DNA from: Patescibacteria group bacterium
GTDB lineage: Bacteria > Patescibacteriota > Microgenomatia > UBA8517
Length of the DNA stretch: 64,000 nt
Reading direction: 5' to 3'
NCBI GenBank assembly: GCA_025999275.1
Contig: AP024680.1
Span: forward strand, 1,957-65,956
In this document: one piece after another, positions 3,529-50,084 of the stretch
Layout of the letters: every line of letters begins with the position of its first letter
Numbering within the stretch: the stretch's first letter is position 1
Notes under the pieces: generated by a model
Databases searched by the model: none
Told to the model about the DNA's origin: nothing
Seen by the model: the letters and a program-made list of their open reading frames with translations, nothing else
Program-made: the position numbers and the translations under genes

Positions 3529-3619
3529 AATTACTCCTTTCTTTGAATATTTTCCTCTTGGCCAAGAGACCTAACCACACGGCTAGGGCTTTGAATATTA
3601 GAATCAGGAAACCAGCTCA

Positions 3620-3695
3620 ACCATTGGCCATCAGACATTAATCATCAACCATTAGCCATTAGCCATCAACATTGATCATTAGCTATTATCTTCTA
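3620..3695. repeat. degenerate tandem heptamer repeat (CCATTAG / CATCAAC-like)
   Basis: Reads ...caaccattggccatcagacattaatcatcaaccattagccattagccatcaacattgatcattagc... Confidence 0.4.
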
Positions 3696-4259: not shown

Positions 4260-4805
4260 AGGCATTATATACTATAGTTTTTCAAAAGTCAAGTGCTATG
4301 GGATACGGACAAGATTAGTCAATAGCTAGTCCCCGCCTACGGCGGGGTTAGTCAAAGCTGGTCGAAGGTAGTTCACACCCACGGCGGAGTTATCCAAAGA
4401 CAAAAAGAAAAGTTTAAGCAAAAGTTGCAATTAAAAACTTCAGACAAACTCAGGTAGGATAATCACTATATTCTTTCGCCTTCAGCTTAGGAGAAAAAGC
4501 ACCAATCTGGCGAGCTATTCGCTTATACTCATGTTGCAATTGGCTTGTATCTACACTACAAACACAGTTTACTATCTGAAGCAATGTAACAACTTCATTA
4601 GTAGCCTTCAGAAATATTCGTTGCCGCAGAAACCGAAGCCCTCTTAATCTGATCGCACAAAGACCAATCTAAAGCTAGATTTTTATTTTCCTTTATAAGA
4701 GCATAAATCTGTTGAATCAATCGGATTGAAGACTGATAAATTCTCAACTTCTCAACCATAATTCATTCTACCAACTCCAACCAACTTTGACCAACTCCGA
4801 CTAAT
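4260..4805. repeat. intergenic repeat element (R-family copy) containing a disrupted four-helix-bundle gene
   Basis: Carries ccccgcctacggcgggg (4331-4347), the ggttagtcaaagctggtcgaagg motif and ccaactttgaccaactccgac motifs shared with the copies at 6080-6500, 13660-14020 and 55185-55620. Confidence 0.5.
4450..4759 (-). pseudogene. four-helix-bundle (23S-IVS-protein family, PF05635-like) pseudogene, frameshifted
   Basis: My translation: MVEKLRIYQSSIRLIQQIYALIKENKNLALDWSLCDQIKRASVSAATNISEGY then a stop. The next frame continues NEVVTLLQIVNCVCSVDTSQLQHEYKRIARQIGAF.... The NIxEG motif matches the intact paralogs at 23976 and 50085. Confidence 0.5.
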
Positions 4806-5585
4806 TCAGACTTTCAAAAGCCTTGCGTATTTGAAGATACGAATTGGTGAATTTAAAGCCTCGCAGGTATAAAGAATCAAATCAGCCGAATAATCAGTGA
4901 TTTCCTCTCCTTTCCCTTCCGCATAAACCTCATAAACATATTTTCTTTGCCTCCAAATGACCTCAACAGTCTCTCCAACTTTAAGCTTGGGAAGATTGTA
5001 AAAAGAATTCTTCAAGCGATACGGAACGCTCCACCTTAAATAACCGTAGCGGTGAGCGGCAAAAATGACCGGCGCTTTTCTCTCATAAGGAGTACCAAAA
5101 TCAGGAACACGCCAAACGCCAATTTTTAAAGCTTCTTCATAATCTTCATAAGAAGCTTCATTTATTTTTGTATTAATACCAACAGAAGGAATAATCAAAT
5201 AATTCTCAAGAGGAAGAGTTGGATCAAGCCTTGGCTGATAAACCTTTTCTTCAATCTGAGGAGCTGGTATAGAAGGCACATCCTGAGCCTTTCTAAAAAG
5301 CAAATACGATACTTTCCCACCCCCAGCAACCATAAACACCAAAGAAGGTGCATATAAGACAAGAAAGATTAAGATTCCCAAAAAACCAGCATACAAAGCC
5401 AAACGACGCAATATTTTGGCCACACCAACTCTAACCGGAGCCGGAATTATCTGGACCGGTTCAAAATTCTGTCGATAATAAGCTTCAAGATATGTTGGTT
5501 CCATAAAAAAAGAAAAGGGTGCAAAAGCGCCCTTAAGGAGCGGGTAGTACGCCTGCCCTACATACCACCCGCCCCCTAAAGACAC
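4806..5585 (-). CDS. sortase-family transpeptidase
   Basis: N-terminal TM anchor. His motif VIFAAHR. Catalytic Cys motif LILYTCE (TLxTC-like). Downstream Arg (IRIFKYARL). Confidence 0.75.
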   Translation of the reverse strand: MSLGGGWYVGQAYYPLLKGAFAPFSFFMEPTYLEAYYRQNFEPVQIIPAPVRVGVAKILRRLALYAGFLGILIFLVLYAPSLVFMVAGGGKVSYLLFRKAQDVPSIPAPQIEEKVYQPRLDPTLPLENYLIIPSVGINTKINEASYEDYEEALKIGVWRVPDFGTPYERKAPVIFAAHRYGYLRWSVPYRLKNSFYNLPKLKVGETVEVIWRQRKYVYEVYAEGKGEEITDYSADLILYTCEALNSPIRIFKYARLLKV

Positions 5586-5589
5586 TAAC

Positions 5590-6500
5590 TACACCCTTTT
5601 CTTGTTCTAAAATATTATGGGCCAACGATAAAAATTTATCGTTTTAGCCTCATAACTTAAAATTGACTCTTGACAGACTAAAATTTTGGTAATAAATAAT
5701 TTAAATAGGTTTTAATCTAGCCTGTCCTTTCCCGCCCTAGGCGGGAAAAGCCTAAAAAAGAGCATTCCTGCGAAAAAGATTTCTTTTTCGCAAGCTTTGC
5801 TTACTCGTGGCCAATTAGTTCCGATCAGACGGAAAACTTCCAGCGGTAAGCGAGGTTTGTTCTCCCTCGAGAGCAGGATGCTCTTTTTTTTTATTTTCAA
5901 GTACCAACAAAATTCTACCACTCCACCCTCCATTTGTCAAACCCTATAATTTTTAAAAGCCAAAAAACCAACACTCCTATAGTAATCTATAGTCAAAATA
6001 TCCCAAAAAATAGGAATTTTAAAAATCAAAAACAAATTGTGGATAAGTTGGGGAGAAAATTGGGCATCAGACGGGCTAGTCGGAGTTGGTCCCCGCCTAT
6101 GGCGGGGTTAGTCGAAGTTGGTTGAAACTAGTCGAAGTTGGTCAAAGCTAGTCAGAATTTAGTAGCAAAGGGGAGAAGTAAGATTCACGATTTAAGAATT
6201 AAGAATAAAAATAATTCAAAAGTTAAAATTCAAAAAATAAAAATTACAAGTTAAAAGTCAAAGGTTTAATTGCATAATTAAATAATTTTTAATTTTGAAT
6301 TGTTGGCCCAAGGCCAACCAGCCTAGGGCTGATACTTTTGCCTGCCTGCCGGTGTAGGCAAGAATTTTGTCTTTTGACTTTTGAGTTATTATTTTTGTTT
6401 AGAATTTAGTGCTTAGAATTCAGATATTCTATTTCCTATACCCATTCCCCATGATTCATAAATCATAAATCTTTTTCCCCTTACTACTTACTACCGTTTC
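5590..6500. repeat. AT-rich intergenic repeat region (R-family copy 1, best-conserved part ~6080-6500)
   Basis: Carries ccccgcctatggcgggg (6091-6107), TCAAAAG-like heptamer runs, ggcccaaggccaaccagcctagggc, tgcctgcctgccggtgtaggca, cataaatcataaatc and ttactacttactac. It is an inverted copy of 13660-14020. Confidence 0.65.
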
Positions 6501-6518
6501 TGTGGTATCATCAAGAAA

Positions 6519-7838
6519 ATGGCAACACATTCCCAGTTTGTCTGTCAACAATGCGGCTTCTCCCAAGTCAAATGGTCTGGCAAGTGTCCAAACTGCGGCG
6601 CTTGGGGATCAATGGTAGAAGTAACCACACAACACCAAAATAAGAAAGGAAAGGAAAATAAACCAGCAAAAACAATTACTCTTGATAAAGTCAATCTCCA
6701 AAAAACACCAAGAATATCAACTGGAAGTGTTGAGCTTGATCGGGTTCTAGGAGGCGGAATAGTTGCTGGACAGGTAATTTTAATTGCCGGTGAGCCGGGG
6801 ATCGGCAAATCAACTCTTTTAATGCAGCTTTCAAACAAAGTCGCCTCACAATATCAAAAAAAAGTCATCTATGCTTCAGGCGAAGAATCAGCCCTGCAAA
6901 TTGCCACCCGCGCCCAAAGGCTAAAGAGTAAAAATGAAAGAATTGTTATCTGTGAATCAACCGATATTGACTCAATTATTTCAACTTTTGAGGAAAATAG
7001 AGATGATATGCAAGTTGGTATTGTTGACTCAATCCAAACAATGTCAACGGTTGATCTTTCAGGGCTTGCAGGTTCAGTTGGACAGGTTAGAGAATGCGCT
7101 TTCAGACTTGTTAACTTTGCCAAGAAAGAAAATATACCCATTTTTATCGTCGGACATATCACCAAAGAAGGAACTGTCGCCGGCCCTGCCGTACTTGCAC
7201 ACATTGTTGATACAGTTTTGTGGTTTGAGGGCGAAAAATCGCTTCAATTGAGGTTAATTAGGGCGGTTAAAAATCGTTTTGGTCCAACTGACGAGGTTGG
7301 TATTTTTGAAATGACAGACAAGGGGCTAACTTCTCTAACCAATGCAGACAGAATATTTCTAACACAGGGGGCAAAAAATGTTTCAGGAAGCGTGGTTTCT
7401 TCAACCATGCAAGGCACAAGACCTGTTCTTGTTGAAATCCAAAGCCTTACAACTCCCACCAAATCGGCCTTCCCAAAAAGAATTGCACAAGGAATTGACT
7501 CAAAAAGGCTGGAGCTTATTATTGCCATTTTGATTAAACGCTCTTCCCTTCCTCTTTACGATCAAGATGTTTTTGTTAATGTCACAGGGGGAATAAAAAT
7601 AGAAGAAAATGCCTGTGATTTGGCTGTTGCTCTTTCCATCGCATCTTCTTTTTATAACAAACCATTCCCTGCCAAAACTATCGCTGTTGGAGAGCTTGGG
7701 CTTTTGGGAGAAATAAGAGAAGTTGTTGCTTTAGAAAAAAGAATTAAAGAAGCAAAAAGGCTAGGTTTTGAGAATGCAATCTCAGCTAAAGAATTTACCT
7801 ATCTAAACCAAGCCATAAAGGAAACTATAAAGAGATAG
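6519..7838 (+). CDS. radA: DNA repair protein RadA/Sms
   Basis: N-terminal C4 zinc ribbon (CQQCGF...CPNCGAW). Walker A GEPGIGKST. RecA-like core and Lon-protease-like C-terminus. 439 aa. Confidence 0.9.
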   Translation: MATHSQFVCQQCGFSQVKWSGKCPNCGAWGSMVEVTTQHQNKKGKENKPAKTITLDKVNLQKTPRISTGSVELDRVLGGGIVAGQVILIAGEPGIGKSTLLMQLSNKVASQYQKKVIYASGEESALQIATRAQRLKSKNERIVICESTDIDSIISTFEENRDDMQVGIVDSIQTMSTVDLSGLAGSVGQVRECAFRLVNFAKKENIPIFIVGHITKEGTVAGPAVLAHIVDTVLWFEGEKSLQLRLIRAVKNRFGPTDEVGIFEMTDKGLTSLTNADRIFLTQGAKNVSGSVVSSTMQGTRPVLVEIQSLTTPTKSAFPKRIAQGIDSKRLELIIAILIKRSSLPLYDQDVFVNVTGGIKIEENACDLAVALSIASSFYNKPFPAKTIAVGELGLLGEIREVVALEKRIKEAKRLGFENAISAKEFTYLNQAIKETIKR

Positions 7839-8032
7839 AAAGCTGTCAGCCATCAGTCATCTGATATCAGTTTTAATCATCAGAATTAGTTGGATTCGGA
7901 AAGATAGTAGCAAGTATAAAACACAACTTTTGACTTAACTTAGTAATGTGTCAACCTAATACACCGAAAGTTGTACTTGCGGAATATTGCTTGAGGTCTA
8001 GGTAGTCATAAACGAAAATATTTTAGCAAGTG

Positions 8033-8248
8033 TTACTTTGTTTCCCCCTTATTAATAACCTCTTTCCCTTTATCATTATCGTCTCCAAACAATAAATTCT
8101 CCATTTCAATTTCCCTAATTCCATCATCTGGGCCGGCTCCAGAAATAGATTCTTCTGGTTGAAAAATAAACTTATTAGCGGGTATTAACTCTCCAATTTC
8201 ACTCAATCTTTCAGGAAACATAATCAGAATTATATTACTTAATTTCAA
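8033..8248 (-). CDS. hypothetical small acidic protein
   Basis: 71-aa ORF only. Confidence 0.25.
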   Translation of the reverse strand: MKLSNIILIMFPERLSEIGELIPANKFIFQPEESISGAGPDDGIREIEMENLLFGDDNDKGKEVINKGETK

Positions 8249-8261
8249 AAGTGTAAAGTCT

Positions 8262-8834
8262 TCAGCTCAAAGCCTTTAAAATAGACAAATTTGAACATAA
8301 ATCGGTTATTATTAATTTCTCTTGAAAATATTTAATGTTAATCGGAAGGATTGATATACCAGATACAGAAAATCTTCGGCAAAAATCCAAAGATAATTGA
8401 GGAAGTACTACCCTCAATTCCCTTAAATCAAACCTACTATTAATCATTTTTTCTTCTAAATTTTTACCTTCAACAAAAGGGCTAACAGAGGCAAAAGATC
8501 CACAACAAGAACATCTAATCACTTTCTCAATCGGAGCAACCCTCAAAGGCAAAGCCAAATTATTAAATCTTAAATTAAGATGCCAATTTTCTTCTTCAGA
8601 AAATCTTGAAGCACTATTTGTTATCTCTTTGTAAAGATTAATAATTTTAGAAGCTTGACTTTCAGAAAAACTTCTCCATTTGCCCTGATTGTAAACTTTG
8701 ACAACATGTTCACCAAAAAGATAAACCAAAGAATCATTACCAGCAAAATCCCATCTTTCTGAAAGATCACCGCAACAAAAAAACAAAGAGTCAGATAAAT
8801 CAGAAGATCTTAAAAGTTGCCTTCTTTCAATCAC
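8262..8834 (-). CDS. hypothetical Cys-containing protein
   Basis: 190 aa with CCG/CSCCG motifs. No recognisable family. Confidence 0.35.
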   Translation of the reverse strand: MIERRQLLRSSDLSDSLFFCCGDLSERWDFAGNDSLVYLFGEHVVKVYNQGKWRSFSESQASKIINLYKEITNSASRFSEEENWHLNLRFNNLALPLRVAPIEKVIRCSCCGSFASVSPFVEGKNLEEKMINSRFDLRELRVVLPQLSLDFCRRFSVSGISILPINIKYFQEKLIITDLCSNLSILKALS

Positions 8835-8848
8835 TTTTTAAAAGGCAG

Positions 8849-9961
8849 TTATTTATAGCCAACAGGTTTTGAGGTCAAAACTAAACCTAAACTAATTTTC
8901 CTATCTTCTTTATTGATTTCATCTATAAAAACATCAATTTTATCTCCAACTTTAAGATTAGTGGCGGGTGGAATCTTAGTAATATGAAGAAGCCCTTCAA
9001 TCCCAGGCTCAAGTTCAACAAAAGCCCCAAAATCAGAAATTTTAACCACCTCTCCTTTAACCTTCATTTCCACCTTATATTTCTTTTCTGCTTTCTCCCA
9101 AGGATCTCCTTGAGCCTGTTTGATAGAAAGAGCCAAACGGCCGTCTTTAATCTCCAAAACCTTAACCTTAACCTTATCCCCTTCTTTTAAGACCTCAGCT
9201 GGTTTAATCGATTTGCCCCAGGCAATTTCTGAGCTATGAACCAAACCTTCAACCCCTATCTTTTCCTTTTTATAAACAACCTCAATCCTAACAAAAGCCC
9301 CAAAATCAGTAACAGTGGTAACAATTCCATCATAAACTTCTCCCACTTTAAGGTTCGAAATGACCTCTTTTTGTGCTTCAAGCTCTTTTGCCTGAACAAC
9401 AGCCTTTTGGGACAAAATAAGGCGATTTGAATCTTTGTCAAAATCAATAATCTTAAGTTTCAAAATCTTGCCAACCAAATTATTTACATCTTTTAACGTC
9501 TCCTTGGTCAAATGAGACATTGGTACAAAACCAGTTAATCCCAAAATCTCAACAGTTATTCCTGATTGTCCAGCATTTTTAACATCTAAAGAAAGTTCTT
9601 TGCCTTCTTTATAAAATTTCTCCAGCTTTTCCCAAACAAAACCTTTAGCAGATTCACGAAGAGAAATTATTGTATAACCATCTGAAGTTTCAGGAATTAA
9701 AACCGAACCCTCCACTTCATCTCCAACTTCAAGCTGCTTAACAAAATCTTTAGCCTCATTCAAGGCCTTACCAGCTACCATCCCCAAAGATTTACCACCA
9801 ATATCCAAAAGCAAAGATTTGGGGCTCTTTTCTATTACTTTGCCTCTAACTTTTTGGCCAACCTTCAAACTAAAACTTAAACCTTTGGAAGAAGCCAAAA
9901 GATCAGCCATCGTTAATTCTTTTGAAGATTCTGTTTTTTTATTCTTCTTTAGTGCTGTCAC
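8849..9961 (-). CDS. rpsA: 30S ribosomal protein S1 (four S1 domains)
   Basis: Repeated S1-fold motifs (G.KV.G.V..I...G.FV.I, LLH.SEI) across 370 aa. Confidence 0.8.
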   Translation of the reverse strand: MTALKKNKKTESSKELTMADLLASSKGLSFSLKVGQKVRGKVIEKSPKSLLLDIGGKSLGMVAGKALNEAKDFVKQLEVGDEVEGSVLIPETSDGYTIISLRESAKGFVWEKLEKFYKEGKELSLDVKNAGQSGITVEILGLTGFVPMSHLTKETLKDVNNLVGKILKLKIIDFDKDSNRLILSQKAVVQAKELEAQKEVISNLKVGEVYDGIVTTVTDFGAFVRIEVVYKKEKIGVEGLVHSSEIAWGKSIKPAEVLKEGDKVKVKVLEIKDGRLALSIKQAQGDPWEKAEKKYKVEMKVKGEVVKISDFGAFVELEPGIEGLLHITKIPPATNLKVGDKIDVFIDEINKEDRKISLGLVLTSKPVGYK

Positions 9962-10008
9962 TTGTATTTAGAGCCAAAAGCTCCCTCCTTTTATATTTTT
10001 TAGTCTTA

Positions 10009-10135
10009 GGTCTTTCGGCCTTGGCCTATTTTCGCGGGTCCTTGCGAACCAACTATCGTCGGCGCTTAAGCGTTTCACTTCTGAATTCGAAATGGGATCA
10101 GGTGGTTCCGCTTAGCTCTTAAAGACCGAAAGGCC
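10009..10135 (-). rRNA. rrf: 5S rRNA
   Basis: Reverse complement reads ...GCGGAACCACCTGATCCCATTTCGAATTCAGAAGTGAAACGCTTAAGCGCCGACGATAGTTGG... with terminal helix ggcctttcgg / ccgaaagacc. Confidence 0.7.
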
Positions 10136-10225
10136 TAAGACTAAAAGTAAAAAGAATTTTGCCCAAAATAGCAAAGCGAAAGAGAAAAATAGGAAAGGTA
10201 AAAGGTCTTCGACCGATTCGCACTG

Positions 10226-13270
<3,045 letters not shown>

Positions 13271-13357
13271 TTCCCATTTTCTCTTTCGCTTTACCCGCCA
13301 AAATTAATTTGACGAAAGCGATAAGGACAAAATTCTCTTTACTTTTTAAAGTACCTG

Positions 13358-13431
13358 TGGACCTGAGCGGCTTCGAACCGCTGACCTCTACATTGCAAAT
13401 GTAGCGCTCTGGCCAACTGAGCTACAGGCCC
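13358..13431 (-). tRNA. tRNA-Ala (anticodon TGC)
   Basis: Folded by hand. Acceptor GGGCCTG/CAGGTCC. Anticodon loop tTTGCAa. TTCGAAG T-loop. Lies immediately 5' of the 23S, as in canonical rRNA operons. Confidence 0.85.
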
Positions 13432-13659
13432 AAGTCAAAGATTTTTAAAAAGTGCTAACAAATAAAAAACCGACTCTCTTTGAGCCGGTAACCTACATAC
13501 TTAGGAAAACTCTATAATTTAAAAGCCAACAAATAGGCTTAAAATCTTTAGTAATTCTTAAGTTTATTTTCCATTAAACAATACAAAAAATTTCGGCTCA
13601 AAGGCAACAAACATTATAAATGTAAAGTCAAATTTAGTCAATAGTTTAATTATGAACTA

Positions 13660-14020
13660 TGAATAATGGGGTATGGGAAATAGAATATCTAAATTCCAAG
13701 CACTAAATTCTAGACAAAAATAATAACTCAAAAGTCAAAAGGCAAAATTCCTGCCTACCGGCAGGACAGCCTACCGTCAGGCAGGCAGGCAAAATTACCA
13801 GCCCTAGGCTGGTTGGCCTTGGGCCAACAATTCAAAATTAAAAATTATTTAATTATCTAACAAAACTTTTGAATTTTAACTTTGAATTATTTTATTCTTA
13901 ATTCTTAAATCGTAAATCTTAATTCTTTTTTACCATTACTACTTACTGCTTTCTACTTACTACTATCTTTCCAGTTCTGACCAACCCCGCCGTAGGCGGG
14001 GACCAACTTCGACTATCAGC
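13660..14020. repeat. R-family repeat (inverted copy of 6080-6500) between tRNA-Ala and tRNA-Ile
   Basis: Reverse complement matches copy 1 block by block (gggccaacaattcaaaattaaaaattatttaattat; cctgcctaccggcagg; caaaagtcaaaag; ccccgccgtaggcggggaccaacttcgac at 13985-14010). Confidence 0.7.
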
Positions 14021-15618
14021 CATTGCTTAAAATTAACTTTTATCATAAAATAAGTAAGTTCAAGGGTGCGTAGTTCACTGGTAGAACGCTTCTCTGATAA
14101 AGAAGAGGTACATGGTTCGATTCCATGCGCACCCACCAGAAACTGACTTTTAGGCTTTGAAAGAGCCATTTTGTGGGCGGCGCACAGCGCCGCCCATTGA
14201 TTTTGCGGCGTTGCGCGCGCTTCGCGGCCGGCCAAAATGAGGTTCGAGCCAAAGATTTCTTTGGCTATGACCTTTTTAGCAAAAAGGTCATTATCTCTTG
14301 CGATTTTTTCCACTTGTAAAGCGGAATTTATCCAATTTCTGAAAGGTTCGAGCCAATCATTCTGCTTTTGTTCAAAACGGATAATTTGCTCCTCCAGCGT
14401 CTTTTTCTCGCTCATTAGTTTTGCTTTTCTTTGCCGATATTCTTCTCTGTCTATGTCTTGCTCAAGATAAGCCTCTAAAAGTCGCTGGAGCTTGATATTG
14501 ATTTCTCTGATTTTCTCTCTTGCTTCTTGAACAAAAGCAGCGCAGGATTGAGCGGCTTCTTTTTCGTCTTTTTCTGCCATTTTCAATAATTCCTCCGCCC
14601 AATCCTGCGGCAAAGAAACTTTTTGAATCATCTTTGATAACTGCCGATCAAGTTCTTCTTCTCGGATATATGGCTGGGTGCATCTCATCGCTTTGTTTTT
14701 CTTGGTACAGCGGTAATAGATATGTCCTTTTTGAATTTCGGCAGTTATCATCATGCCGCACTCACCACAGCGCAAAAGTCCGGTAAAGGCTTTGGGGATT
14801 TTTTCTTTCTTTTGAGGCTTGCCTCTTTGCTTTAATACTTCCTGAACCTTATCAAAAAGTTTCTTTGCAATGATTGGCTCGTGTTTGCCCTCGTGGATTT
14901 CTCCTCCATAGCGGAAGTGTCCGTAATAAAAAGGGTTAGAAAGGATAAATTTGATTCTATCTTTGTGGATTCTCTTACCATTACGGGATAAAATCCCGTG
15001 GTGCGCCAAAAAGTTGGAGATATCCTCTAAAGTTTTATCGCCTTTGGAGTAATGCTCAAAAGCAGCTTTGATAATTTTGACTTTCTTTTTATCAACAACA
15101 ATTGTTTTTGTCCTTACATCATTGATATAGCCAATAGGAGCAGGTCCCGGATATTCTCCTCTCCTTACTTTTTGGCGCAAACCTCTTTTAGTGTTTTCGG
15201 AAAGAGAATCCACATAATATTTACTTTGCCCAAAAGCAATGTTGAGCATAAACTTGCCTTGAGGGGTTGGCTCAAACCAAAAAGTAGGGAATTTTAGAGC
15301 TTGAAGCTTGCCGGTATCCAATAGAAAAATAATCCTTCCACCATCTACAAAATTGCGCGCCAATCTATCTGGGTGCCAAGCCAAAATTCCTTGAGCCTCG
15401 CCCTTCTCAATTCTCTTTAACATCTCATTAAAAATAGGCCTTCCCGGAATTTTGGCAGATTGTCTTTCTATAAACTCCTTAACAATTGTTATTCCTTCTT
15501 TTTTAGCAAAGGCGCGCAATTCTGTTAATTGAGCCTCAATGCTCAACACCTGCTTATCCTCAACATCTGTGGATTTGCGGGCGTATAAAAAGAATTTTTG
15601 CGATGTTGGATTTTCCAT
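13963..15618 (-). CDS. large serine recombinase (resolvase/invertase catalytic domain + recombinase domain + zinc-ribbon/coiled-coil)
   Basis: N-terminal YARKSTDVEDKQVLSIEAQ (catalytic Ser motif) ...GILAWHPDRLARN. CxxC...C zinc ribbon (LRCGECGMM...YYRC). Long coiled-coil. The last ~55 aa of the 551-aa track ORF read through repeat A and antisense across tRNA-Ile; that part is probably read-through and the true 3' end lies in or near 14140-14330. Confidence 0.85.
   Translation of the reverse strand: MENPTSQKFFLYARKSTDVEDKQVLSIEAQLTELRAFAKKEGITIVKEFIERQSAKIPGRPIFNEMLKRIEKGEAQGILAWHPDRLARNFVDGGRIIFLLDTGKLQALKFPTFWFEPTPQGKFMLNIAFGQSKYYVDSLSENTKRGLRQKVRRGEYPGPAPIGYINDVRTKTIVVDKKKVKIIKAAFEHYSKGDKTLEDISNFLAHHGILSRNGKRIHKDRIKFILSNPFYYGHFRYGGEIHEGKHEPIIAKKLFDKVQEVLKQRGKPQKKEKIPKAFTGLLRCGECGMMITAEIQKGHIYYRCTKKNKAMRCTQPYIREEELDRQLSKMIQKVSLPQDWAEELLKMAEKDEKEAAQSCAAFVQEAREKIREINIKLQRLLEAYLEQDIDREEYRQRKAKLMSEKKTLEEQIIRFEQKQNDWLEPFRNWINSALQVEKIARDNDLFAKKVIAKEIFGSNLILAGREARATPQNQWAALCAAHKMALSKPKSQFLVGAHGIEPCTSSLSEKRSTSELRTLELTYFMIKVNFKQWLIVEVGPRLRRGWSELER
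14064..14138 (+). tRNA. tRNA-Ile (anticodon GAT), opposite in orientation to the rest of the rRNA operon
   Basis: Acceptor GGGTGCG/CGCACCC. Anticodon loop cTGATAa. Encoded CCA. Its last 5 nt (CACCA) begin an 87-bp inverted repeat. Confidence 0.85.
14134..14220. repeat. inverted repeat A, left copy (87 bp perfect; imperfect extension to ~14330), overlapping the tRNA-Ile 3' end
   Basis: caccagaaactgacttttaggctttgaaagagccattttgtgggcggcgcacagcgccgcccattgattttgcggcgttgcgcgcgc is the exact reverse complement of 15854-15940. Contains the GC palindrome tgggcggcgc-aca-gcgccgccca. Confidence 0.9.
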
Positions 15619-15648
15619 AATTCCTAAAACTCAAATGGCCGCCCCGGT

Positions 15649-15722
15649 GCGACCAACCAAGAGAAACCTTGATTGTTCCGAGACGGCCATTAGAAAAGGC
15701 TTCTCTGTCTGGTTGGTCGCAT
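15649..15722. promoter_or_regulatory. 12-bp inverted repeat (gcgaccaaccaa...ttggttggtcgc) in the recombinase upstream region
   Basis: Seen directly in the sequence. Location fits an operator or 5'-UTR structure for the recombinase gene. Confidence 0.3.
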
Positions 15723-15853
15723 TTTCAGTATATCACAAAATCAAAATTAGCAAAAATTCTTTTTATTGAGCAAAGCAAATATTATGCTCGCCTAAAAGGC
15801 GAGCTAAAGGTAGGATTAAAAAAATCGCAAGAGATACGAACCTTATTTTGGCT

Positions 15854-15940
15854 GCGCGCGCAACGCCGCAAAATCAATGGGCGGCGCTGTGCGCCGCCCA
15901 CAAAATGGCTCTTTCAAAGCCTAAAAGTCAGTTTCTGGTG
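15854..15940. repeat. inverted repeat A, right copy (87 bp perfect), abutting repeat B
   Basis: Exact reverse complement of 14134-14220. With indels, weaker similarity continues back to ~15790. Confidence 0.9.
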
Positions 15941-15982
15941 CAATTATACCGTTCCGCTCGAAACTATTTTATCAAAAATTTC
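15936..15982. repeat. inverted repeat B, left copy (47 bp, shares TGGTG/CACCA with repeat A); duplicates the first 16 codons of the gene at 18618..19409
   Basis: tggtgcaattataccgttccgctcgaaactattttatcaaaaatttc matches the reverse complement of 19362-19408 with 1 mismatch. It encodes VQLYRSARNYFIKNF followed immediately by TAA. Confidence 0.85.
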
Positions 15983-16002: not shown

Positions 16003-16270
16003 AGTGGCGGCAGGAAAAGGGGTTAAAGGGGAAAATCCTGCCTGTTTGCCTGTCGGCAGGCAGGGAATTGCCGCCACTGCCTCCGCTTTACTGCTCGTCG
16101 TCCCGCCTTACGGCGGGACTCCTCGCAATTTCAAGCCTCATTATTGCTCGGCCGCCTAACGGCGGCCTCGCGCTAATCGCTACTACAGTCGCACCCCCGC
16201 CTTTGCTTGGGGTCGCGCTCCTTTCGCTCGCCCCACCTCTGGCGGGGCTCGCTATCTGCTAGAGAAATTT
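16003..16270. repeat. GC-rich multi-hairpin block (R-family-like palindromes) in an AT-rich genome
   Basis: Palindromes ggcagtggcggca...tgccgccactgcc; cctgcctg...ggcagg; cccgccttacggcggg; ggccgcctaacggcggcc; ccccacctctggcgggg. All are visible as inverted repeats. Confidence 0.5.
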
Positions 16271-16371
16271 TCGCTCATTTCGTATCTAAATAACAATACA
16301 AGTCCTGGCTTGAAGTATTAAAACTATCAAATTTCTCCCGTAGGTTGTAAAATATATTCCACATCCAAACT

Positions 16372-17283
16372 ATGAAAGAAATAAATATAGTTTATTCTGA
16401 AAATTATCTTAAATATGACCTAGGCCTCGACAACCCTATTTCTAAAACCAAAACAGGAATGTTTCTGGAGAAACTTAGAAAAGAAGGAAAAATAGATTAC
16501 AAGGTTTTGGAAGCTCCAAGAGCCGAGGAAGAAGACCTGCTTTTAGTTCATACACCAAGATATCTACAAGAGTTAAGAAGGTTGGCGGACAATAATTTGG
16601 ATTTTGATGCCGATACTCCAGTAAATCATGGGATGTTAGAAGGGGGGTTATATATCATCGGCGGAACCATTCTATCCTTAAACCTTGCTTTGCAAGACGA
16701 AAGAGTTGTAAATCTAATCGGAGGCATGCATCATGCAAGTTCTTACAAAGCTTCCGGTTTTTGTATTTATAATGACCACGCCATAGCTATTCGAAAACTC
16801 CAAAAAGAGGGCAAAATAAAGAAGGCAATTGTTTACGATCTTGATGTGCATGCAGGTCAGGGAACACAAGAAATTTTCTATCATGATGCAAGTGTTATGA
16901 CAGTGTCTATCCATCAAGACCCACGGACAATTTATCCGGGGACTGGTTTTGAATGGCAAAAGGGAGAAGGAGAGGGATTAGGAACAAATATTAATATTCC
17001 ATTGCCTCCTGGTACTATGGAAAGAGAGTATTTGCAAGCATTAGACTCTATATTAGAAAGTACAAAAAGTTTCAGTCACGACATTTCAATCTTAATTTTA
17101 GGAGTTGATACTTATAAAGAGGACTTTCTGGGTGGAATGAGATTAGAAAAGGAAAGTTTTAGAAAGATTGGCGAGAGATTTAGAAATTTCCAGAAATTAG
17201 CAATTCTTTTTGGTGGTGGTTATTCTAGTAAAATTCCAGATCTTTGGATGTTATTCCTAAAAGGTTACTTAGGAATAAATTAA
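16372..17283 (+). CDS. histone-deacetylase-family (AcuC/acetylpolyamine amidohydrolase-like) protein with atypical metal-site motif
   Basis: GGMHHASSY and DLDVHAGQGT (canonical D-x-D-x-H-H-G-D-G; here His->Ala and Asp->Gln). 303 aa. Confidence 0.7.
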   Translation: MKEINIVYSENYLKYDLGLDNPISKTKTGMFLEKLRKEGKIDYKVLEAPRAEEEDLLLVHTPRYLQELRRLADNNLDFDADTPVNHGMLEGGLYIIGGTILSLNLALQDERVVNLIGGMHHASSYKASGFCIYNDHAIAIRKLQKEGKIKKAIVYDLDVHAGQGTQEIFYHDASVMTVSIHQDPRTIYPGTGFEWQKGEGEGLGTNINIPLPPGTMEREYLQALDSILESTKSFSHDISILILGVDTYKEDFLGGMRLEKESFRKIGERFRNFQKLAILFGGGYSSKIPDLWMLFLKGYLGIN

Positions 17284-18617: not shown

Positions 18618-19409
18618 TCAACAGCCCTTGGTTGATAAAATAAATCTCCTGGCACCTCCTGCCCCCCCAGTACCCTTACAACCTCCATTGCAGATAATAA
18701 CTGCTTTAAGAGGAACCCCTCTTTTAATTGCTTCTGGAATTACGTTCTTGCCTGAATGAAGATATGCCCCATCCCCAGTAACTGAGATAACATTTTTCGC
18801 ACCTGCCAAAATTCCACCTACCCCTACGCCCAAAGCGGAGCCAAAGCATAAACACGCATCAATTGTGTCAAGGGTATCTTGCGTGTATTCACCTAAATCT
18901 CCTACTACAAATGAGGGTTTCGTTCTTTTAATCGCCGAAAAGAGCTTTTTGTAATTATTTGAAATAATATAGCCACTGGATTTATCGGGAATTTTACCAA
19001 AACAAGCCTCAATTCTCTCGTTTGAAGATAGCGCCACAATTTTCTGCTTAGCAAATCCGTCACCTTGTTCTAAAACTACTACTCTGCGTGACCGATTAAT
19101 TACATTTCTAAGATTGTCGGGAATTGGATAAGTAAAAATTTGCAATTTTCTAAACCCTTTATTCAAATACCTTTTCTCTTCTTCAAGATTACAGCCAAAA
19201 GACAAAAGTAACTTTTTAACCCCATCAAGCTTTGTTAGTTCCTTTTTATACAGCTTATTTATGAAACTTCTTATTTTTTTATTTTTATTGGAAAGAGACT
19301 TTCTCTGAGTTGCTGAATTAATTGGGTGAACAACAAAGCGTGTATGATCTTTAACTATTGGGAAATTTTTGATAAAATAGTCTCGAGCGGAACGGTATAA
19401 TTGCACCAA
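18618..19409 (-). CDS. thiamine-diphosphate-binding protein resembling 2-oxoacid:ferredoxin oxidoreductase beta subunit (orphan, divergent)
   Basis: VGDLGEY...GSALGVGVGGILAGAKNVISVTGDGAY...AVIICNGGCKGTGGAGG fits the OFOR-beta GDG-x27-N(N/G) TPP pattern. The N-terminal ~110 aa are unrelated to it. Its start codon lies inside inverted repeat B'. Confidence 0.45.
   Translation of the reverse strand: MVQLYRSARDYFIKNFPIVKDHTRFVVHPINSATQRKSLSNKNKKIRSFINKLYKKELTKLDGVKKLLLSFGCNLEEEKRYLNKGFRKLQIFTYPIPDNLRNVINRSRRVVVLEQGDGFAKQKIVALSSNERIEACFGKIPDKSSGYIISNNYKKLFSAIKRTKPSFVVGDLGEYTQDTLDTIDACLCFGSALGVGVGGILAGAKNVISVTGDGAYLHSGKNVIPEAIKRGVPLKAVIICNGGCKGTGGAGGARRFILSTKGC
19362..19408. repeat. inverted repeat B, right copy (core CACCA at 19404-19408)
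   Basis: gaaatttttgataaaatagtctcgagcggaacggtataattgcacca. Confidence 0.85.
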
Positions 19410-19921: not shown

Positions 19922-22114
19922 ATGACAGAACTTGTTACTCTTAACTTTAGAATTCCAAGAAATACTGATGTCACACCTGAGGCGGCACAAACTTTCCTTT
20001 CTGCCCTAACGCAGATAAACGCTGTTTCTTTCTGGGAAAAATTAACAGGAGTAGTGCCCCAACCTCTTGCTCTTGAAATTGCTCTCATAAACCAACAAAT
20101 TAGATTTCAAATTACCTGCGACTCTGGCATTGCCCCATTTATTGAAACCCAGCTTCAATCAAACTATCCACTTGTGATTATAGAAAGAGTTGCCGATCCA
20201 CTAACTCGATCAGACCTTTATAAAATCAATCTTCAAAACCTAACAACCACCTCTTTACAACTTAGAAAAGGAAGTTACTACCCAATTGCAACTTTTGATT
20301 CTTTCTCAGAAATTGACCCCCTCTCTTCAATCCTTTCTGTGCTTTCAAAAAGCGATCCGGATGAGTTTGCGTTAATTCAAATTGCACTTGAAGCAACAGA
20401 CTCCTCATGGCAACAAAAAGGAGCATCTTTTGCAGAAAAAGGAACAAAAAATGATGATGGTAGTTATTCCCCAAGATCGGATAAAAATATAATAAATGAA
20501 AAAATCTCTTATACAGGATTTAGGACGTCTATAAGAATTGTTGCAAACCAAACAAAAACCGTAAAAGAATTGGTTAGTGCATTCGGAGTTTTTTCAAGAG
20601 CAGATGGAAATTCTTTCAAAATTAAAAAGAACGGGCTATTTGGATTAAAGAAAGATTCTATTAAAGATGTCATATTAAGAAAAGTAACAGATAACCAGAT
20701 ACTAAACATCAAAGAGCTGGCAACCATTTGGCACTTACCTTCTGAAAAAATAAAAACAACCGGAATTAGCTGGGGCGTCTCAGTCTTATATGAGCCACCC
20801 GACAACCTGCCAATAGCAGTAGATGATGAAAATATCAAAAAGGAAACAAATTTCTTCGCCAAAACATTATTCAAAAACAGAGAGGTTATATTTGGAATCA
20901 AAAACAAAGATAGAATGCGCCATATGTGGGCTGTTGGTAAAACCGGCACAGGTAAATCAACTATGATGGCCAATATGATAATTGATGATTTCAAAAAAGA
21001 TCGAGGTGTTGCCTACATTGATCCGCATGGTGACACCTGTGAGATATTGCTTGATTATATTCCAAGCCACAGAATAAATGATGTCATTTATTTTAATCCT
21101 GCCGACCGTGATTATCCCATTACCCTTAATCCACTTGAGGTTAAAAATAACGAAGAAGCAGAACTAGTAGTTTCAGGTTTAATGAGCATCTTTACCAAAG
21201 TCTGGGCAAATGTTTGGTCTGCAAGAATGGAATACATATTAAGAAATTCGTTTATGACTCTTGCCACCTACCCCAATTCCACTCTTGAGGATGTATTAAA
21301 AATATTGGTCGACAAAAATTTCCGCGATCAAGTCTTGCAAAAAACTACCGATTCGGCTTTGATTCATTTTTGGAGGCAAGAATACGAAAAAATGCCCGAT
21401 CGTCTTCAAAAGGAAGCAATTGCCCCTATTCAAAATAAAGTTGGTCAATTTGTAACCTCACCAATGATAAGACGCATAATCGGTAAATCAAGAAGTACCA
21501 TTTCTCTTGATAAAATAATCAACGAGGAAAAAATTCTACTTGCAAACTTATCTCAAGGAAGACTGGGTGAAGACAATGCAAATCTCTTGGGAGCAATGCT
21601 TATCACCCAAATTCAACTTGCCGCAATGAGGAGAGTTGATATTAAAGCTGAAGAAAGAAAACCCTATTATGTATTTGTTGACGAGTTTCAGAATTTTGCC
21701 ACAGATTCATTTATAAAAATCCTGTCTGAAATTAGAAAATATAACCTTTCCTTAACTCTAGCCAACCAATATATGGCTCAAATCCCCGAAAATGTAAGAA
21801 AAGCAATCTTGGGAAATGCCGGAACAATAATCACATTTTCAGCAGGTGCTGAAGACGCCGCTACCTTAAGCAAAGAATTTGCTGAAGTCTTTTCAGAAAG
21901 CGACCTGGTAAATTTGGCTAATTTCCAGATTGCCATAAAACTAATGATTGATGGACATTCATCAAGGCCTTTCCTTGCCCACACGCTTCCCCTTCCCTTA
22001 TCCAAGAACCAGAACAGACAAAAAGTGATTGAGGTATCAAGGCAAAGGTGGTCAGATAAAAGCAATATCAATCAGCCACCAAATCAAAATTGGAAACAAA
22101 TCAAATTTAGGTAA
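19922..22114 (+). CDS. FtsK/HerA-superfamily ATPase of the T4SS coupling-protein (TrwB/TraD/VirD4) / VirB4 type, with ~300-aa conserved N-terminal domain
   Basis: RMRHMWAVGKTGTGKST (Walker A), YIDPHGD, FNPAD...NPLE, FVDEFQNF (Walker B), RKYNLSLTLANQ, LGNAGTIITF. Paralog of 58510..60843. No N-terminal TM. Confidence 0.65.
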   Translation: MTELVTLNFRIPRNTDVTPEAAQTFLSALTQINAVSFWEKLTGVVPQPLALEIALINQQIRFQITCDSGIAPFIETQLQSNYPLVIIERVADPLTRSDLYKINLQNLTTTSLQLRKGSYYPIATFDSFSEIDPLSSILSVLSKSDPDEFALIQIALEATDSSWQQKGASFAEKGTKNDDGSYSPRSDKNIINEKISYTGFRTSIRIVANQTKTVKELVSAFGVFSRADGNSFKIKKNGLFGLKKDSIKDVILRKVTDNQILNIKELATIWHLPSEKIKTTGISWGVSVLYEPPDNLPIAVDDENIKKETNFFAKTLFKNREVIFGIKNKDRMRHMWAVGKTGTGKSTMMANMIIDDFKKDRGVAYIDPHGDTCEILLDYIPSHRINDVIYFNPADRDYPITLNPLEVKNNEEAELVVSGLMSIFTKVWANVWSARMEYILRNSFMTLATYPNSTLEDVLKILVDKNFRDQVLQKTTDSALIHFWRQEYEKMPDRLQKEAIAPIQNKVGQFVTSPMIRRIIGKSRSTISLDKIINEEKILLANLSQGRLGEDNANLLGAMLITQIQLAAMRRVDIKAEERKPYYVFVDEFQNFATDSFIKILSEIRKYNLSLTLANQYMAQIPENVRKAILGNAGTIITFSAGAEDAATLSKEFAEVFSESDLVNLANFQIAIKLMIDGHSSRPFLAHTLPLPLSKNQNRQKVIEVSRQRWSDKSNINQPPNQNWKQIKFR

Positions 22115-22345: not shown

Positions 22346-23085
22346 TACTTTATAAAAACAAAAACCCGCCTATAAAAGCGGGTTAGACAAAAACTTCAAC
22401 ATCCAAATTATGACCGGGAGAGGTGCCCCGTTTTTTAAACAGTAAAACGGCGACATTAAAACTGGGGTGTGAAACACACTCCTTAGAAAGGAGGTGATCC
22501 ATCCGCCCCTTCCAGGACGGATACCTTGTTACGACTTAATCCTCATCGCTGGTTTCACCTTCTCCCGCCACAGGCGAGATTCGGGTGCCCCCAACTTTGC
22601 TGACTTGACGGGCGGTGTGTACAAGACCTGAGAACGTATTCACCGGAGCTTGGCTGATCTCCGATTACTACCAATTCCGCGTTCATGAGGGCGGGTTTCA
22701 GCCCTCAATCCCCACTGAGAAGCCGTTTGATGAGATTAGCTCCGCGTTACCGCTTGGCAACCCATTGTTAGGCTCCATTGTAGCATGTGTGTCGCCCCGG
22801 ACATAAGGGCCATGCTGACTTGACGTCGTCCCCACTTCCTCCCCGCATGTGCGGGGTTGTCTCCTGTGACCATCTAACACAGGACAGGGGTTGCGCTCGT
22901 TACCCCACTGAAGGGAACACCCCACGGCACGAGCTGACGACAGCCATGCAACACCTGTCTCGCCTTCCTTAATTACTTAAGGATTGTCTCTTATTTCTAA
23001 GAAACTATACGGCGGGATGTCAAACCCGGGTAAGGTTCTTCGGTTCGTCTCGAATTAAACCACATGCTCCACTGGTTGTGCAGGT

Positions 23086-23135
<50 letters not shown>

Positions 23136-23888
23136 CTCGCTTAACGCGTTAGCTTACACCCCGTACCAAAAGGCACAGGGCTAGCGAGCATAAGTTTACG
23201 GCTAGGACTACAGGGGTCTCTAATCCCTTTCGCTCCCCTAGCTTTCGTGTCTCAGCGTCAAGAAACCCCCAGCTACCTGTCTTCACCCTTGGCGTTCCTT
23301 ATCATATCAACGGATTTCACCCCTACATGATAAGTTCCAGTAGCCCCTAAGTTCTTCAATTCTGGCAGTATTGAATCCACTCCTGAGGTTGAGCCCCAGT
23401 CTTTAAGATTCAACTTACCAGAACGCCTACACACTCTTTACGCCCAATAAATCCGGGCAACGCTCGCACCCTACGTCTTACCGCAGCTGCTGGCACGTAG
23501 TTAGCGGGTGCTTATTCGCCAAGGCTTATCAACCTTGGCAAAAGTGGTTTACAACCCTAAGGCCTTCATCCCACACGCGGCGTCGCGGCGTCAGACTTTC
23601 GTCCATTGCGCACGATTCCCAGTTGCTGCCACCCGTAGGTGTATGGGCCGTGTCTCAGTCCCATTCTGGGGGGTCAGACTCTCATCTCCCCTAACCGTCA
23701 TAGCCTTGGTGGGCCATTACCCCACCAACTAGCTGATGGTCCGCAAGCTCCTCCACAAGCGAGCAGTTAAGCCCTTTGGTGCATAGCACCACATGCGGTA
23801 TTAGCCCCGCTTTCGCGGGGGTATTCCCCACTTGTGGGTAGATTCTTACGTGTTACTCAGCCGTTCGCGACTGTCCGTAGGACAGAAC

Positions 23889-24380
23889 ATTTAACAATTA
23901 ACACATAACATTTAACAATTAGCTGTTAACATTTAACTTTTAACAATTGGTTTAGAGAGTTAGGAAAGAAGTTTCTTAGAAAGGCCACCAAGCTGTTTTT
24001 GCTATAATCAAAGCTTTATCTACCAATGTTAGATATTTCTCTTTAGACAATAATTCAAGCGATAAAGCAAGATCAAGACAAGAAACAACTTCACTAATAG
24101 AACCTAGGGCATTCTGAATATATCTCCTAAAATCCTTATCAGTACCCTTTGCAGAACCTTCTGCTATATCAAGACAAACAGAAATTGAGGCTCTTACTAA
24201 TTGATCTGCCAAACTCTTATCCTTCATACGCCAACCTCTTGCGAGAAGATATATATCACGATTGAATGCTTTAGATTCTTGGTAAACCTTAAATTTTAGA
24301 AATCTAAAGACTTCCATTATCTTATTTTAACTTTAATAGTTAACAGTTAAAAGCGTAAAACGTGTGTTAATTTGTTAATT
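23889..24380 (-). other. intervening sequence in 16S helix 6 carrying an ORF; flanks form a long imperfect inverted-repeat stem
   Basis: Exon sequence ...GCATGCAAGTGGGACGGTCCGTAGGACCGAGC | insert | GTTCTGTCCTACGGACAGTCGCGAACGGCTGAGTAACACGT. Insert ends ttaacaaattaacaca.../...ctgttaacatttaac are mutually complementary. Boundaries are approximate (±10 nt). Confidence 0.6.
23976..24317 (-). CDS. four-helix-bundle protein (23S rRNA intervening-sequence protein family, PF05635/TIGR02436-like) encoded inside the 16S IVS
   Basis: 113 aa. ...SISVCLDIAEGSAKGTDKDFRRYIQNALGSISEV... matches the family NIAEG-F/Y core. Confidence 0.75.
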   Translation of the reverse strand: MEVFRFLKFKVYQESKAFNRDIYLLARGWRMKDKSLADQLVRASISVCLDIAEGSAKGTDKDFRRYIQNALGSISEVVSCLDLALSLELLSKEKYLTLVDKALIIAKTAWWPF

Positions 24381-24605
24381 GCTCGGTCCTACGGACCGTC
24401 CCACTTGCATGCTTAAGGCACGCCGCTAGCGTTCGCCCTGGGCCAGGATCAAACCCTCAAAAAGCGACGGAGGTATGTTTGCTTTGACTTGCAACATACT
24501 CGTCATCCACACAAGCAAAGCTTGTGTCCTGCATATACAGGTCTCCCAGTCATAATTTGAACGTTGAAATATTCAATTTTCAAAGTGCAAAAGCTTTGAA
24601 AACCT

Positions 24606-48753: not shown

Positions 48754-48862
48754 AACAACATTATACAGCAGCAAAGAGAATCATAAACTAGTAGTATGAA
48801 GTATGCAGAAAGAGGAAGAAAAAATGGATATTGAAACACAGCTAATGTTACACTTCCCCTTA

Positions 48863-50059: not shown

Positions 50060-50084
50060 GTATCAAGTAGAATGTAGCTTGTAG

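Follow-up and report, generated by a model that had tools for sequence, protein, structure and literature searches.

Intervening sequences (IVSs) are stem-bounded insertions in helices 25 and 45 of 23S rRNA that are cut out by RNase III, and the IVS of Coxiella carries three GACAGAT heptamers beside an S23p open reading frame (ORF) (PMC4990558). The rRNA genes of the candidate phyla radiation (CPR) are rich in insertions, with 23S_rRNA_IVP (hereafter IVP) ORFs in both the 16S and the 23S gene and short non-intron insertions at IVS sites; the account describing them does not mention repeats (PMC11270868). The family PF05635, matched by the IVP genes described below, is related to Avd of diversity-generating retroelements (DGRs) (PMC10053308). 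Heptameric simple sequence repeats (SSRs) are over-represented in many bacteria, polymerase slippage having been proposed as the cause, and heptamer arrays of unknown function are found in Calothrix, Nostoc, Xanthomonas and Beggiatoaceae, examples being the short tandemly repeated repetitive (STRR) sequences of Calothrix PCC 7601, GGGGAYT in Nostoc, GGGAATC in Xanthomonas and TAACTGA in Beggiatoaceae, Cyanobacteria and Bacteroidetes (PMC4692102, PMC4679880). Here we analyze a family of dispersed AT-rich repeats, the R elements, in a 64-kb stretch of the genome of a Patescibacteria group bacterium (contig AP024680.1), the whole of which is referred to as the window. We lean, by a modest measure, towards the view that the R elements belong, as ORF-less members, to an IVS-like family of heptamer-array (STRR-like) palindromes, that they are selfish or neutral, and that slippage and recombination drive their turnover.

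A previous reading of the window, made from the sequence only, had proposed a dispersed family of AT-rich repeats, and self-BLAST of the window confirmed that such a family is real, far beyond chance. The proposal that 13660-14020 is an inverted copy of 6080-6500 was borne out as well: 6077-6468 aligns with 14015-13650 at 75.7% over 411 nt (E=5e-80), the longest inverted arms measuring 124 nt (88%) and 90 nt (93%). Many shorter matches place shared modules also at 55220-55562, 29112-29318, 4316-4372 and 4766-4805. The motifs named in the sequence-only reading recur at the places given for them, namely the ccccgcc..ggcgggg hairpin with gaccaacttcgac, the TCAAAAG runs, aagatttatgatt, ttactacttactac, ggtgtcaacctaagacacc and ggcccaaggcc...gcctagggc. 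The copies are not assembly duplications, because they diverge from each other by 10-25% and because 6302-10339, with the right half of the copy next to radA (R_A), recurs at 100% identity in an independent Logan assembly. Besides solo modules, the window contains four composite copies, 300-420 bp long and devoid of ORFs:

6077-6494, plus strand: R_A, between the divergent sortase and radA genes; an end module (6077-6159) consisting of the GC hairpin CCCCGCC-TAT-GGCGGGG and ~2.2 copies of a 20-nt TAGTCGAAGTTGGTC-type repeat, followed by an imperfect palindrome (6160-6494) with heptamer-array arms and GC hairpins at its centre (6305-6360).
13650-14015, minus strand: R_B, an inverted copy of R_A without the outer part of one arm.
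55220-55562, minus strand: R_C, between two divergent tRNA-Met(CAT) genes; a heptamer-array palindrome (55220-55452), GGTGTC-type hairpins (55460-55510) and a GC hairpin with the GACCAACTTCGAC module (55512-55562).
29020-29318, plus strand: R_D, a partial copy with GC hairpins and one heptamer arm, between convergent tRNA-Lys and tRNA-Glu genes; its segment 29237-29317 matches 13865-13943 of R_B at 91%.

The window was compared with relatives at two neighbourhoods. Around radA (6519-7838), whose product has its nearest matches in other organisms among Candidatus Woesebacteria (Patescibacteria/CPR), these were CP058602.1 (L002, RadA identity 84%), JGI Ga0484958_000011 (L003, 83%) and CP055308.1 (L005, 76%). 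Around a 5'-3' exonuclease gene, they were CP058602.1 (L208), the loci L209 and L210, and a strain with 94% DNA identity to the window (L207).

The core of an element is a large imperfect palindrome, the arms of which are chains of differing 7-nt tandem arrays (among the unit flavours are TCAAAAG, AAGATTT/ATGATTT, TAAGAAT and CTTACTA) that hold their register for up to ~20 units. Every arm has a raised identity at lag 7 (0.43-0.64, z 3.4-10), with values of 0.59-0.60 (z 6-7.6) in R_A and of 0.64 (z=10) in R_C, where the arms 55325-55380 and 55393-55448 pair at 82%. The period is a property of the intergenic DNA as a whole, which peaks at lags 7, 14, 21 and 28, whereas coding DNA has no such peaks; the rows reported by Tandem Repeats Finder are mostly of period 7, and the lag scan found lag 7 alone enriched in the window, L002 (intergenic value 0.41 versus a baseline of 0.27) and L003, and nothing enriched in L005. 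L003 has, in addition, hexamer arrays (350-520 nt in 21 kb), which the other genomes do not have. The R_A palindrome (6160-6494) is predicted to fold into a single long hairpin (z=-5.2). GC hairpins of the types GGCCCAAGGCC, CAGCCTAGGGCTG and GCCTGCC..GGCAAG occupy the palindrome centres, and a further module, a CCCCGCC-UAC/UAU-GGCGGGG hairpin followed by a 10/20-nt GTTGGTC repeat, is placed at one end; it is common to the ends of the ORF-less R_A, R_B and R_C and to the arms of an IVP pseudogene at 4316-4805. An exact-pattern scan for the hairpin module CCCCKCYRTAGGCGGGGACYARCT gave no match in genome or metagenome contig collections, and by this measure the module appears to be specific to this species.

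The same heptamer-array plan brackets the four-helix-bundle (IVP/S23p) genes of the window and forms the insertions in helix 6 of its 16S rRNA and helix 25 of its 23S rRNA:

12561-12668, minus strand: insertion in 23S helix 25, ~108 nt, made of inverted TCAAAAG-type heptamer arrays; IVS-type.
23887-24381, minus strand: insertion in 16S helix 6, ~490 nt, with AATTAAC/GTTAATT heptamer arms around an IVP ORF (23976-24317).
4316-4805, minus strand: IVP pseudogene cassette with the arms 4316-4372 (GC hairpin and GTTGGTC-type repeat) and 4766-4805 (inverted); the ORF (4440-4759) is frameshifted.
50057-50482, minus strand: IVP cassette with an intact ORF (50085-50456) between inverted GTAGCNN heptamer arrays, in the spacer between the 5'-3' exonuclease gene and a glycosyltransferase gene (exo/GT spacer).

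The helix-25 insertion, which had escaped notice in the earlier reading, was found as an insertion relative to the large-subunit (LSU) rRNA model. It matches R_D at 97% over 33 nt, and R_A and R_C at 91%, is absent from the 23S genes of L003 and L005, and is predicted to extend the helix by a ~50-bp hairpin (minimum free energy -60 kcal/mol, z=-7.8). In the 16S gene, the true 5' end (GTTTGATCCTGGCCCAG) lies at 24438-24454 and confident alignment to the small-subunit model resumes at model position 100 (window 23866). The heptamer-array ends of the intervening segment pair in the predicted fold, the ORF between them is intact (PF05635, E=8.6e-24; TIGR02436, E=1.4e-21), and one arm matches ORF-less intergenic arrays of L209 at 86% over 63 nt. 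Outside the rRNA genes, the terminal arms of the pseudogene cassette (minus strand, PF05635 E=1e-10) pair with each other, and the neighbourhood in L002 orthologous to 4316-4805 holds an intact IVP gene in the opposite orientation. The exo/GT spacer is the most telling example: where the window, L207 and L208 carry an IVP cassette, L209 has 197 nt of chained heptamer arrays without an ORF, and L210 has a plain 52-nt spacer. Between the window and L208 the two arms of this cassette have changed flavour together (GTAGCNN/..CTAC versus TAGTATT/..AATAC), so that complementarity is kept. Overall, all three IVP loci of the window and both of those in CP058602 are bracketed by inverted arrays. We conclude that R elements, rRNA insertions and IVP brackets constitute one family. 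The sequence-only reading had drawn no connection to rRNA IVSs or four-helix-bundle genes, nor had it recognized that the arms are built of heptamer arrays. Because they are built on the same plan as the IVP-gene brackets and the 16S and 23S insertions, the R elements look like fast-evolving selfish DNA rather than control cassettes of tRNA and rRNA genes.

The insertion displaces the automatic annotation of the 16S gene (22487-24455): the Rfam match (22487-23962) forces the 5' ~70 nt into the insertion and thereby misses the true 5' end by ~490 nt. Two GC hairpins inside the 23S gene (11324-11340 and 11885-11902), which had been taken for further occurrences of the repeat hairpin, were rejected as inserted copies, since they align to native helices of the bacterial LSU model. 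The set of rRNA insertions differs from genome to genome among the relatives. At the place corresponding to window ~11136-11150, L002 has 375 nt (20878-21253) and L005 has 500 nt (14312-14813) of other inserted sequence, and the 23S gene of L003 is longer by ~164 nt in the helix that aligns with window 11885-11902 and by ~135 nt elsewhere (15139-15303 and 16251-16410). A tRNA-Met(CAT) gene of L208 (4503-4760) is split by a group I intron (Rfam Intron_gpI, 60 bits, E=5e-15), which its ortholog in the window (55667-55737) does not have.

The elements proved to be absent at orthologous sites in two relatives (L003 and L005) and also in L210. The radA site measures 184-194 nt in L003 and L005 versus ~480 nt in the window; the tRNA-Ala/tRNA-Ile spacer measures ~254 nt in L005, with the promoter region kept, versus 591 nt in the window; and the tRNA-Met spacer is 159 nt long and without arrays in L210, 425 nt long with other arrays and hairpins in L209, and 492 nt long in the window. 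Period-7 arrays per 42 kb number 0 in CP055308, 47 in CP058602 and 39 in Ga0484958. CP058602 has a (TCRGNNN)n flavour of its own at no fewer than 13 sites, which is missing from the other genomes compared, and at one orthologous spot with the same conserved flanks an array of CCATYAG in the window (3617-3670) stands against TCYGAYG in L002. These differences in array counts, flavours and occupied sites point to a family that is young, species-specific in its sequence and turning over in place.

To see how far the arrays extend beyond this lineage, a scan for (TYAAAAN)x4 was made with one genome per species (taxa being read from record titles), which returned at least 120 loci. Among the matches listed, most are from Cyanobacteria and Bacteroidota, with some from Patescibacteria and Acidobacteriota, and 82 of 120 loci have further period-7 arrays nearby. 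An IVP ORF is present in only 5 of the 120 array-selected loci among these matches (as judged by a home-made hidden Markov model of limited reach), which is no clear enrichment; three or four of the five ORFs are directly bracketed by inverted heptamer arrays, the hosts being Ignavibacteria, Bacteroidales, Flavobacterium and Yanofskybacteria. The reverse approach started from 80 IVP loci in a sample of JGI metagenomes, chosen by protein alone and none of them inside an rRNA gene. A period-7 array is found within 150 nt upstream in 23/73 and downstream in 19/72 of the cases, as compared to 6/113 for windows placed 500 nt off (p=6e-7), and flanking inverted repeats with z>5 accompany 47 of 70 unrelated IVP ORFs versus 0 of 98 shifted controls (p=1.5e-24), the controls behind both of these strong p-values being mostly coding. 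A flank with a period-7 or period-8 array occurs at 39 of the 70 ORFs, mostly 0-60 nt from the ORF ends, and the unit sequence varies from cassette to cassette. When other intergenic gaps in the same loci serve as the reference, the enrichment of IVP-adjacent arrays is ~2.3-fold and not significant (11/48 versus 3/26, p=0.35). In the literature that we searched there is no description of heptamer-array palindromes in CPR, and no account of IVP genes generally bracketed by tandem-array stems outside rRNA genes; the wider connection of IVP genes with inverted repeats appears to be undescribed so far, and the unifying link may be new.

The boundaries of several copies had to be redrawn. What had been read as one copy at 5590-6500 contains the repeat at 6077-6494, and the remainder (5586-6057) is unique, ~76% conserved in three relatives and without 7-nt periodicity. 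This non-coding block carries hairpins and terminator-like stems on both strands, and represents a long structured leader or else a small RNA that has escaped annotation. Within the proposed span 13440-14060 the repeat occupies 13650-14015, and 13432-13645 is the conserved promoter and leader region of the tRNA-Ala-23S-5S genes, again without 7-nt periodicity (conserved in L003, more loosely in L005). Between that promoter and tRNA-Ala (13460-13645), a conserved terminator-like hairpin (13489-13469) is followed by a U-run, and a segment further upstream, CCTTTGAGCCG, could be its alternative pairing partner. The rRNA leader may contain an attenuator or a small RNA in this arrangement. In the presumed copy 4260-4805, the hairpin/GTTGGTC module and its inverted counterpart do stand at the ends, and the interior is the frameshifted IVP pseudogene. 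The alleged GC-rich variant at 16003-16270 has nothing but the style of short GC hairpins in common with the family, being without BLAST similarity to the copies and without 7-nt periodicity. It is a strong GC-hairpin cluster (z=-4.7) upstream of a histone-deacetylase-family gene, and no homologue was found in the relatives' loci. Rfam has no family for the 13440-14060 span, the conserved 5580-6080 block or the GC-hairpin cluster. The rRNA operon is split, 5S-23S-tRNA-Ala lying at 10013-13431 on the minus strand and 16S at a distance of 9 kb, and there are eight tRNA genes in the window. The statement that repeats sit next to every tRNA or rRNA gene was too strong, as there is none by tRNA-Ile(UAU) (58350-58425), in the gap between tRNA-Gln and tRNA-Lys, or by 5S.

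Arrays and modules also occur singly:

3617-3670: CCATYAG heptamer array between GC-rich inverted motifs (lag-7 identity 0.55, z=6.1).
48856-48882: solo CTTACTA heptamer array, in flavour like the outer arm ends of R_A, R_B and R_C.
30847-30894, minus strand: TTTTGAC heptamer array, in frame (21-nt phase) in the gene of a copper P-type ATPase.
7926-7974, plus strand: solo TGTGTCAACCTAATACACC hairpin module downstream of radA.

In the copper ATPase (29979-32288), the array adds a lysine/serine-rich loop of ~10 amino acids after the region of the DKTGT phosphorylation motif, which is a 10-residue insertion relative to Archaeoglobus CopA and falls in a surface loop.

The copies are found mainly between divergent promoters. 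A near-consensus sortase promoter match (TTGACA-17-TAGAAT, 5940->5912, minus strand, with a long leader) lies within 5586-6057, and R_A is located beyond, that is upstream of, this match; no radA promoter passed the promoter scan. R_B sits between the divergent promoters of tRNA-Ala-23S-5S (TTGACT-17-TATAAT, 13641->13613, minus strand, within 13432-13645) and tRNA-Ile (~14024-14052, plus strand), and the scan of the R_C flanks found a promoter for the plus-strand tRNA-Met gene only; both R_B and R_C are upstream of, and outside, the promoter matches identified. Given these positions upstream of promoters, or between convergent tRNA genes, most copies probably occupy spacers that do not need to be transcribed.

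We looked for the usual marks of transposition. Target-site duplications were found neither at R_A nor at R_B nor at the exo/GT site upon comparison with the empty sites of relatives, where the junctions are blurred by divergence, and the copies have no conserved termini in common, R_B being devoid of the outer part of one arm. No DDE transposase, REP-associated tyrosine transposase (RAYT) or reverse transcriptase was detected among the ~47 window ORFs scanned. The assertion that the window has no transposase thus holds for these types; it does have a large serine recombinase at 14221-15618 (minus strand), with Resolvase, Recombinase and Zn-ribbon domains and CcrB/XisF-like matches. This gene is flanked by perfect 87-nt inverted repeats (14134-14220 and 15854-15940), the left one of which begins at the 3' end of tRNA-Ile, and the block 14134-15940, unmatched at the equivalent position of L003 and L005, has the appearance of an element that integrated recently. 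As a mobilizer of the repeats it was rejected, its 87-nt inverted repeats being unrelated to them in sequence and without 7-nt structure. Next to it, a 47-nt inverted repeat (98%; 15936-15982 and 19362-19408), which duplicates the initial 47 nt of an ORF for a TPP-enzyme-like protein (18618-19409), brackets 3.4 kb with deacetylase, hydrolase and kinase-like genes, and this segment may be invertible by the adjacent recombinase.

The mechanism that we favor would run as follows. Arrays would arise and resize through replication slippage, 7 nt being presumably a slippage-favored unit length as in many bacteria; palindromes would form and be homogenized by hairpin or template-switch events and gene conversion; and recombination would shuffle modules between sites. 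As single-stranded RNA or DNA, the arms could pair into one long imperfect hairpin. Copies would persist where they do no harm, such as in untranscribed spacers between divergent promoters, at 3' ends, in rRNA helices that protrude and in the surface loop of CopA. In the rRNA copies, the long stem would be expected to be cut out by RNase III, by analogy with classical IVSs, and the intergenic copies are most likely neutral or selfish, having at most incidental terminator or insulator effects.

Three other explanations deserve consideration. The sequence-only reading had offered promoter/terminator cassettes of stable-RNA genes, to which one may add upstream activating or curved DNA, arrays for binding nucleoid proteins, and bidirectional terminators or insulators. 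Three copies are indeed found directly upstream of strong sigma-70-like promoter matches (tRNA-Ala/23S, tRNA-Ile and tRNA-Met, with sortase for R_A), R_D separates convergent tRNA genes, and AT-rich repetitive arrays of this kind resemble the TTTTGAT heptads of the Vibrio ctx promoter (10.1101/2021.05.14.444153). On the other hand, the promoters of tRNA-Ala/23S, tRNA-Ile and tRNA-Met all lie outside the elements, relatives devoid of elements keep the promoter region of tRNA-Ala/23S as well as the sequence preceding tRNA-Ile, and unit sequences are not conserved between species. Moreover, copies are present where a promoter role is out of place (upstream of radA, around IVP genes, within rRNA helices, in the copA frame), and a regulatory function therefore appears very improbable to us. 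Its companion proposal of recombination hot spots finds no support as a cause of the rearrangement junctions, the divergent tRNA-Ala/tRNA-Ile junction being present in CP055308 without an element. Of the three options put forward originally, MITE-like mobile elements (miniature inverted-repeat transposable elements) come closest, insofar as the copies are ORF-less, 300-420 bp long, equipped with inverted arms and variably present at orthologous sites; independent short-read assemblies break inside them and many IVP homologues are on very short contigs. A classical MITE mobilized in trans by a transposase from another part of the 786-kb genome is nevertheless improbable in view of the lacking target-site duplications, termini that differ between copies, a mosaic composition with species-specific unit flavours, and the absence of a partner transposase of the DDE or RAYT type in the 64 kb (the 87-nt repeats of the adjacent recombinase element being unrelated). 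It would also leave aside the arrays that stand alone, inside an ORF, or in rRNA helices at canonical IVS positions.

According to a third alternative, an IVP/S23p, Avd-like gene together with its inverted heptamer arrays is an autonomous selfish unit, of which the R elements are miniature ORF-less derivatives, and the IVP protein would bind the arrays, in DNA or RNA form, and help them to form, spread or persist. Consistent with this are the brackets at 3/3 IVP loci in the window and 2/2 in CP058602, the ORF-less array element that, in a sister genome, takes precisely the place of an IVP cassette, and the arm flavours common to IVP-bracketing and ORF-less copies. The metagenomic counts of inverted repeats (47/70 versus 0/98) and of arrays (39/70) fit as well, as do the examples from Ignavibacteria, Bacteroidales, Flavobacterium and Yanofskybacteria, the Coxiella IVS with its three GACAGAT units beside an S23p ORF (PMC4990558), and the homology of PF05635 with the nucleic-acid-binding DGR protein Avd (PMC10053308), of which the window proteins give weak matches. 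At the same time, IVP has no known biochemical function, the 42 kb of Ga0484958 hold 39 arrays and no IVP gene, the yield of IVP ORFs from array-selected loci was just 5/120 among the matches listed, and the array enrichment is not significant against intergenic gaps (11/48 versus 3/26, p=0.35); IVP genes may merely land, or be tolerated, in array-rich spacers. We therefore consider this explanation unlikely, if less so than the two preceding ones. A broader version seems doubtful to the same degree, namely that such gene-plus-array units are a selfish cassette widespread in CPR, Bacteroidota, Ignavibacteria, Cyanobacteria and others, that rRNA IVSs are the copies that happen to sit in rRNA, that STRR-type arrays and ORF-less palindromes are products or relics, and that the IVP protein recognizes the 7-nt lattice.

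The reading of the R elements as selfish or neutral, IVS-like heptamer-array palindromes has its own weak points. Slippage alone accounts neither for the copying of ~400 nt between distant sites in R_A and R_B with the order of modules kept, nor for the lasting complementarity of the arms, and a dedicated mobility or binding factor may be at work, for which the IVP protein is the obvious candidate. The window offers a narrow view (64 of 786 kb, ~8% of the genome), and the steps of transcription, RNase III cleavage, slippage and recombination are all ones that we infer. The empty sites of relatives are too diverged for base-exact junctions, which limits the negative result on target-site duplications, and RNAalifold gave no informative covariation for the three copies R_A, R_B and R_C, which are few and have arrays prone to mis-alignment.

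Two features of the wider window are recorded for completeness. Its tRNA-Ile(UAU) gene is kept in four genomes (window 58350-58425, L208 2974-3047, L209 1182-1254, L210 111-185). Such a tRNA is unusual in bacteria, where AUA is normally read by a lysidine-modified CAU tRNA. Two homologues of TrwB/TraG-like type IV coupling proteins are encoded in the 64 kb (19922-22114 and 58510-60843) of a 0.8-Mb genome, one of them adjoining tRNA-Ile(UAU).

The nature and origin of IVSs, the role of the abundant "four helix bundle / 23S rRNA IVS" proteins, and the over-representation of heptanucleotide tandem arrays in some bacterial phyla have been treated as separate puzzles. In the small CPR genome studied here they appear together in a single family that turns over rapidly between sister genomes. 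On the practical side, short-read assemblies of CPR genomes break at these elements. Should the link hold genome-wide, it would give a testable handle on the binding of arrays by IVP, the processing of the stems by RNase III, and the dynamics of arrays in populations.

Among known systems, the DGRs offer one point of comparison. The IVP proteins belong with Avd to a four-helix-bundle fold family and those of the window give weak bAvd/Avd matches, but they score far below the Avd equivalog cut-off (20 versus 80 bits), and the scan of the window ORFs revealed neither a reverse transcriptase nor template/variable repeats. MITEs, REP/BIME (repetitive extragenic palindromes and bacterial interspersed mosaic elements), REPINs (hairpin-forming REP doublets) and BOX elements are likewise non-coding, hairpin-forming, modular, dispersed and restricted to intergenic DNA, and they too break short-read assemblies. 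The R elements differ from them by the absence of conserved termini, of target-site duplications and of a RAYT or insertion-sequence partner in the window, and by modules that are microsatellite-like arrays rather than fixed palindromes of 20-40 nt.

The resemblance to STRR-type SSRs comprises head-to-tail units of 7 nt, a mostly intergenic location at many loci per genome, fast changes of length and sequence between close relatives, and occasional inverted pairs. The STRR1-3 units of heterocystous cyanobacteria are CCCCAGT, TTGGTCA and CAACAGT, and the units of the window (TCAAAAG, AAGATTT, CTTACTA and others) differ from these. Unlike STRR-type arrays, the present ones chain many flavours with no one dominant unit, are arranged in large palindromes that contain GC hairpins, are linked to IVP genes and rRNA insertions, and reside in a CPR bacterium with a 0.8-Mb genome. 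With the rRNA IVSs of Salmonella, Leptospira, Coxiella and CPR the family shares the canonical 23S helix-25 site and 16S helix 6, complementary terminal arms that form a long stem (the intergenic cores folding in the same way), and an optional S23p/23S_rRNA_IVP ORF, with heptamers beside the ORF as in Coxiella. It departs from them in being dispersed through intergenic DNA and mostly ORF-less, and in having stems composed of chained tandem heptamers, for which excision by RNase III is a prediction from the analogy. Overall, the family is best filed under these two known kinds, IVSs and heptamer SSR arrays, rather than in a separate category.

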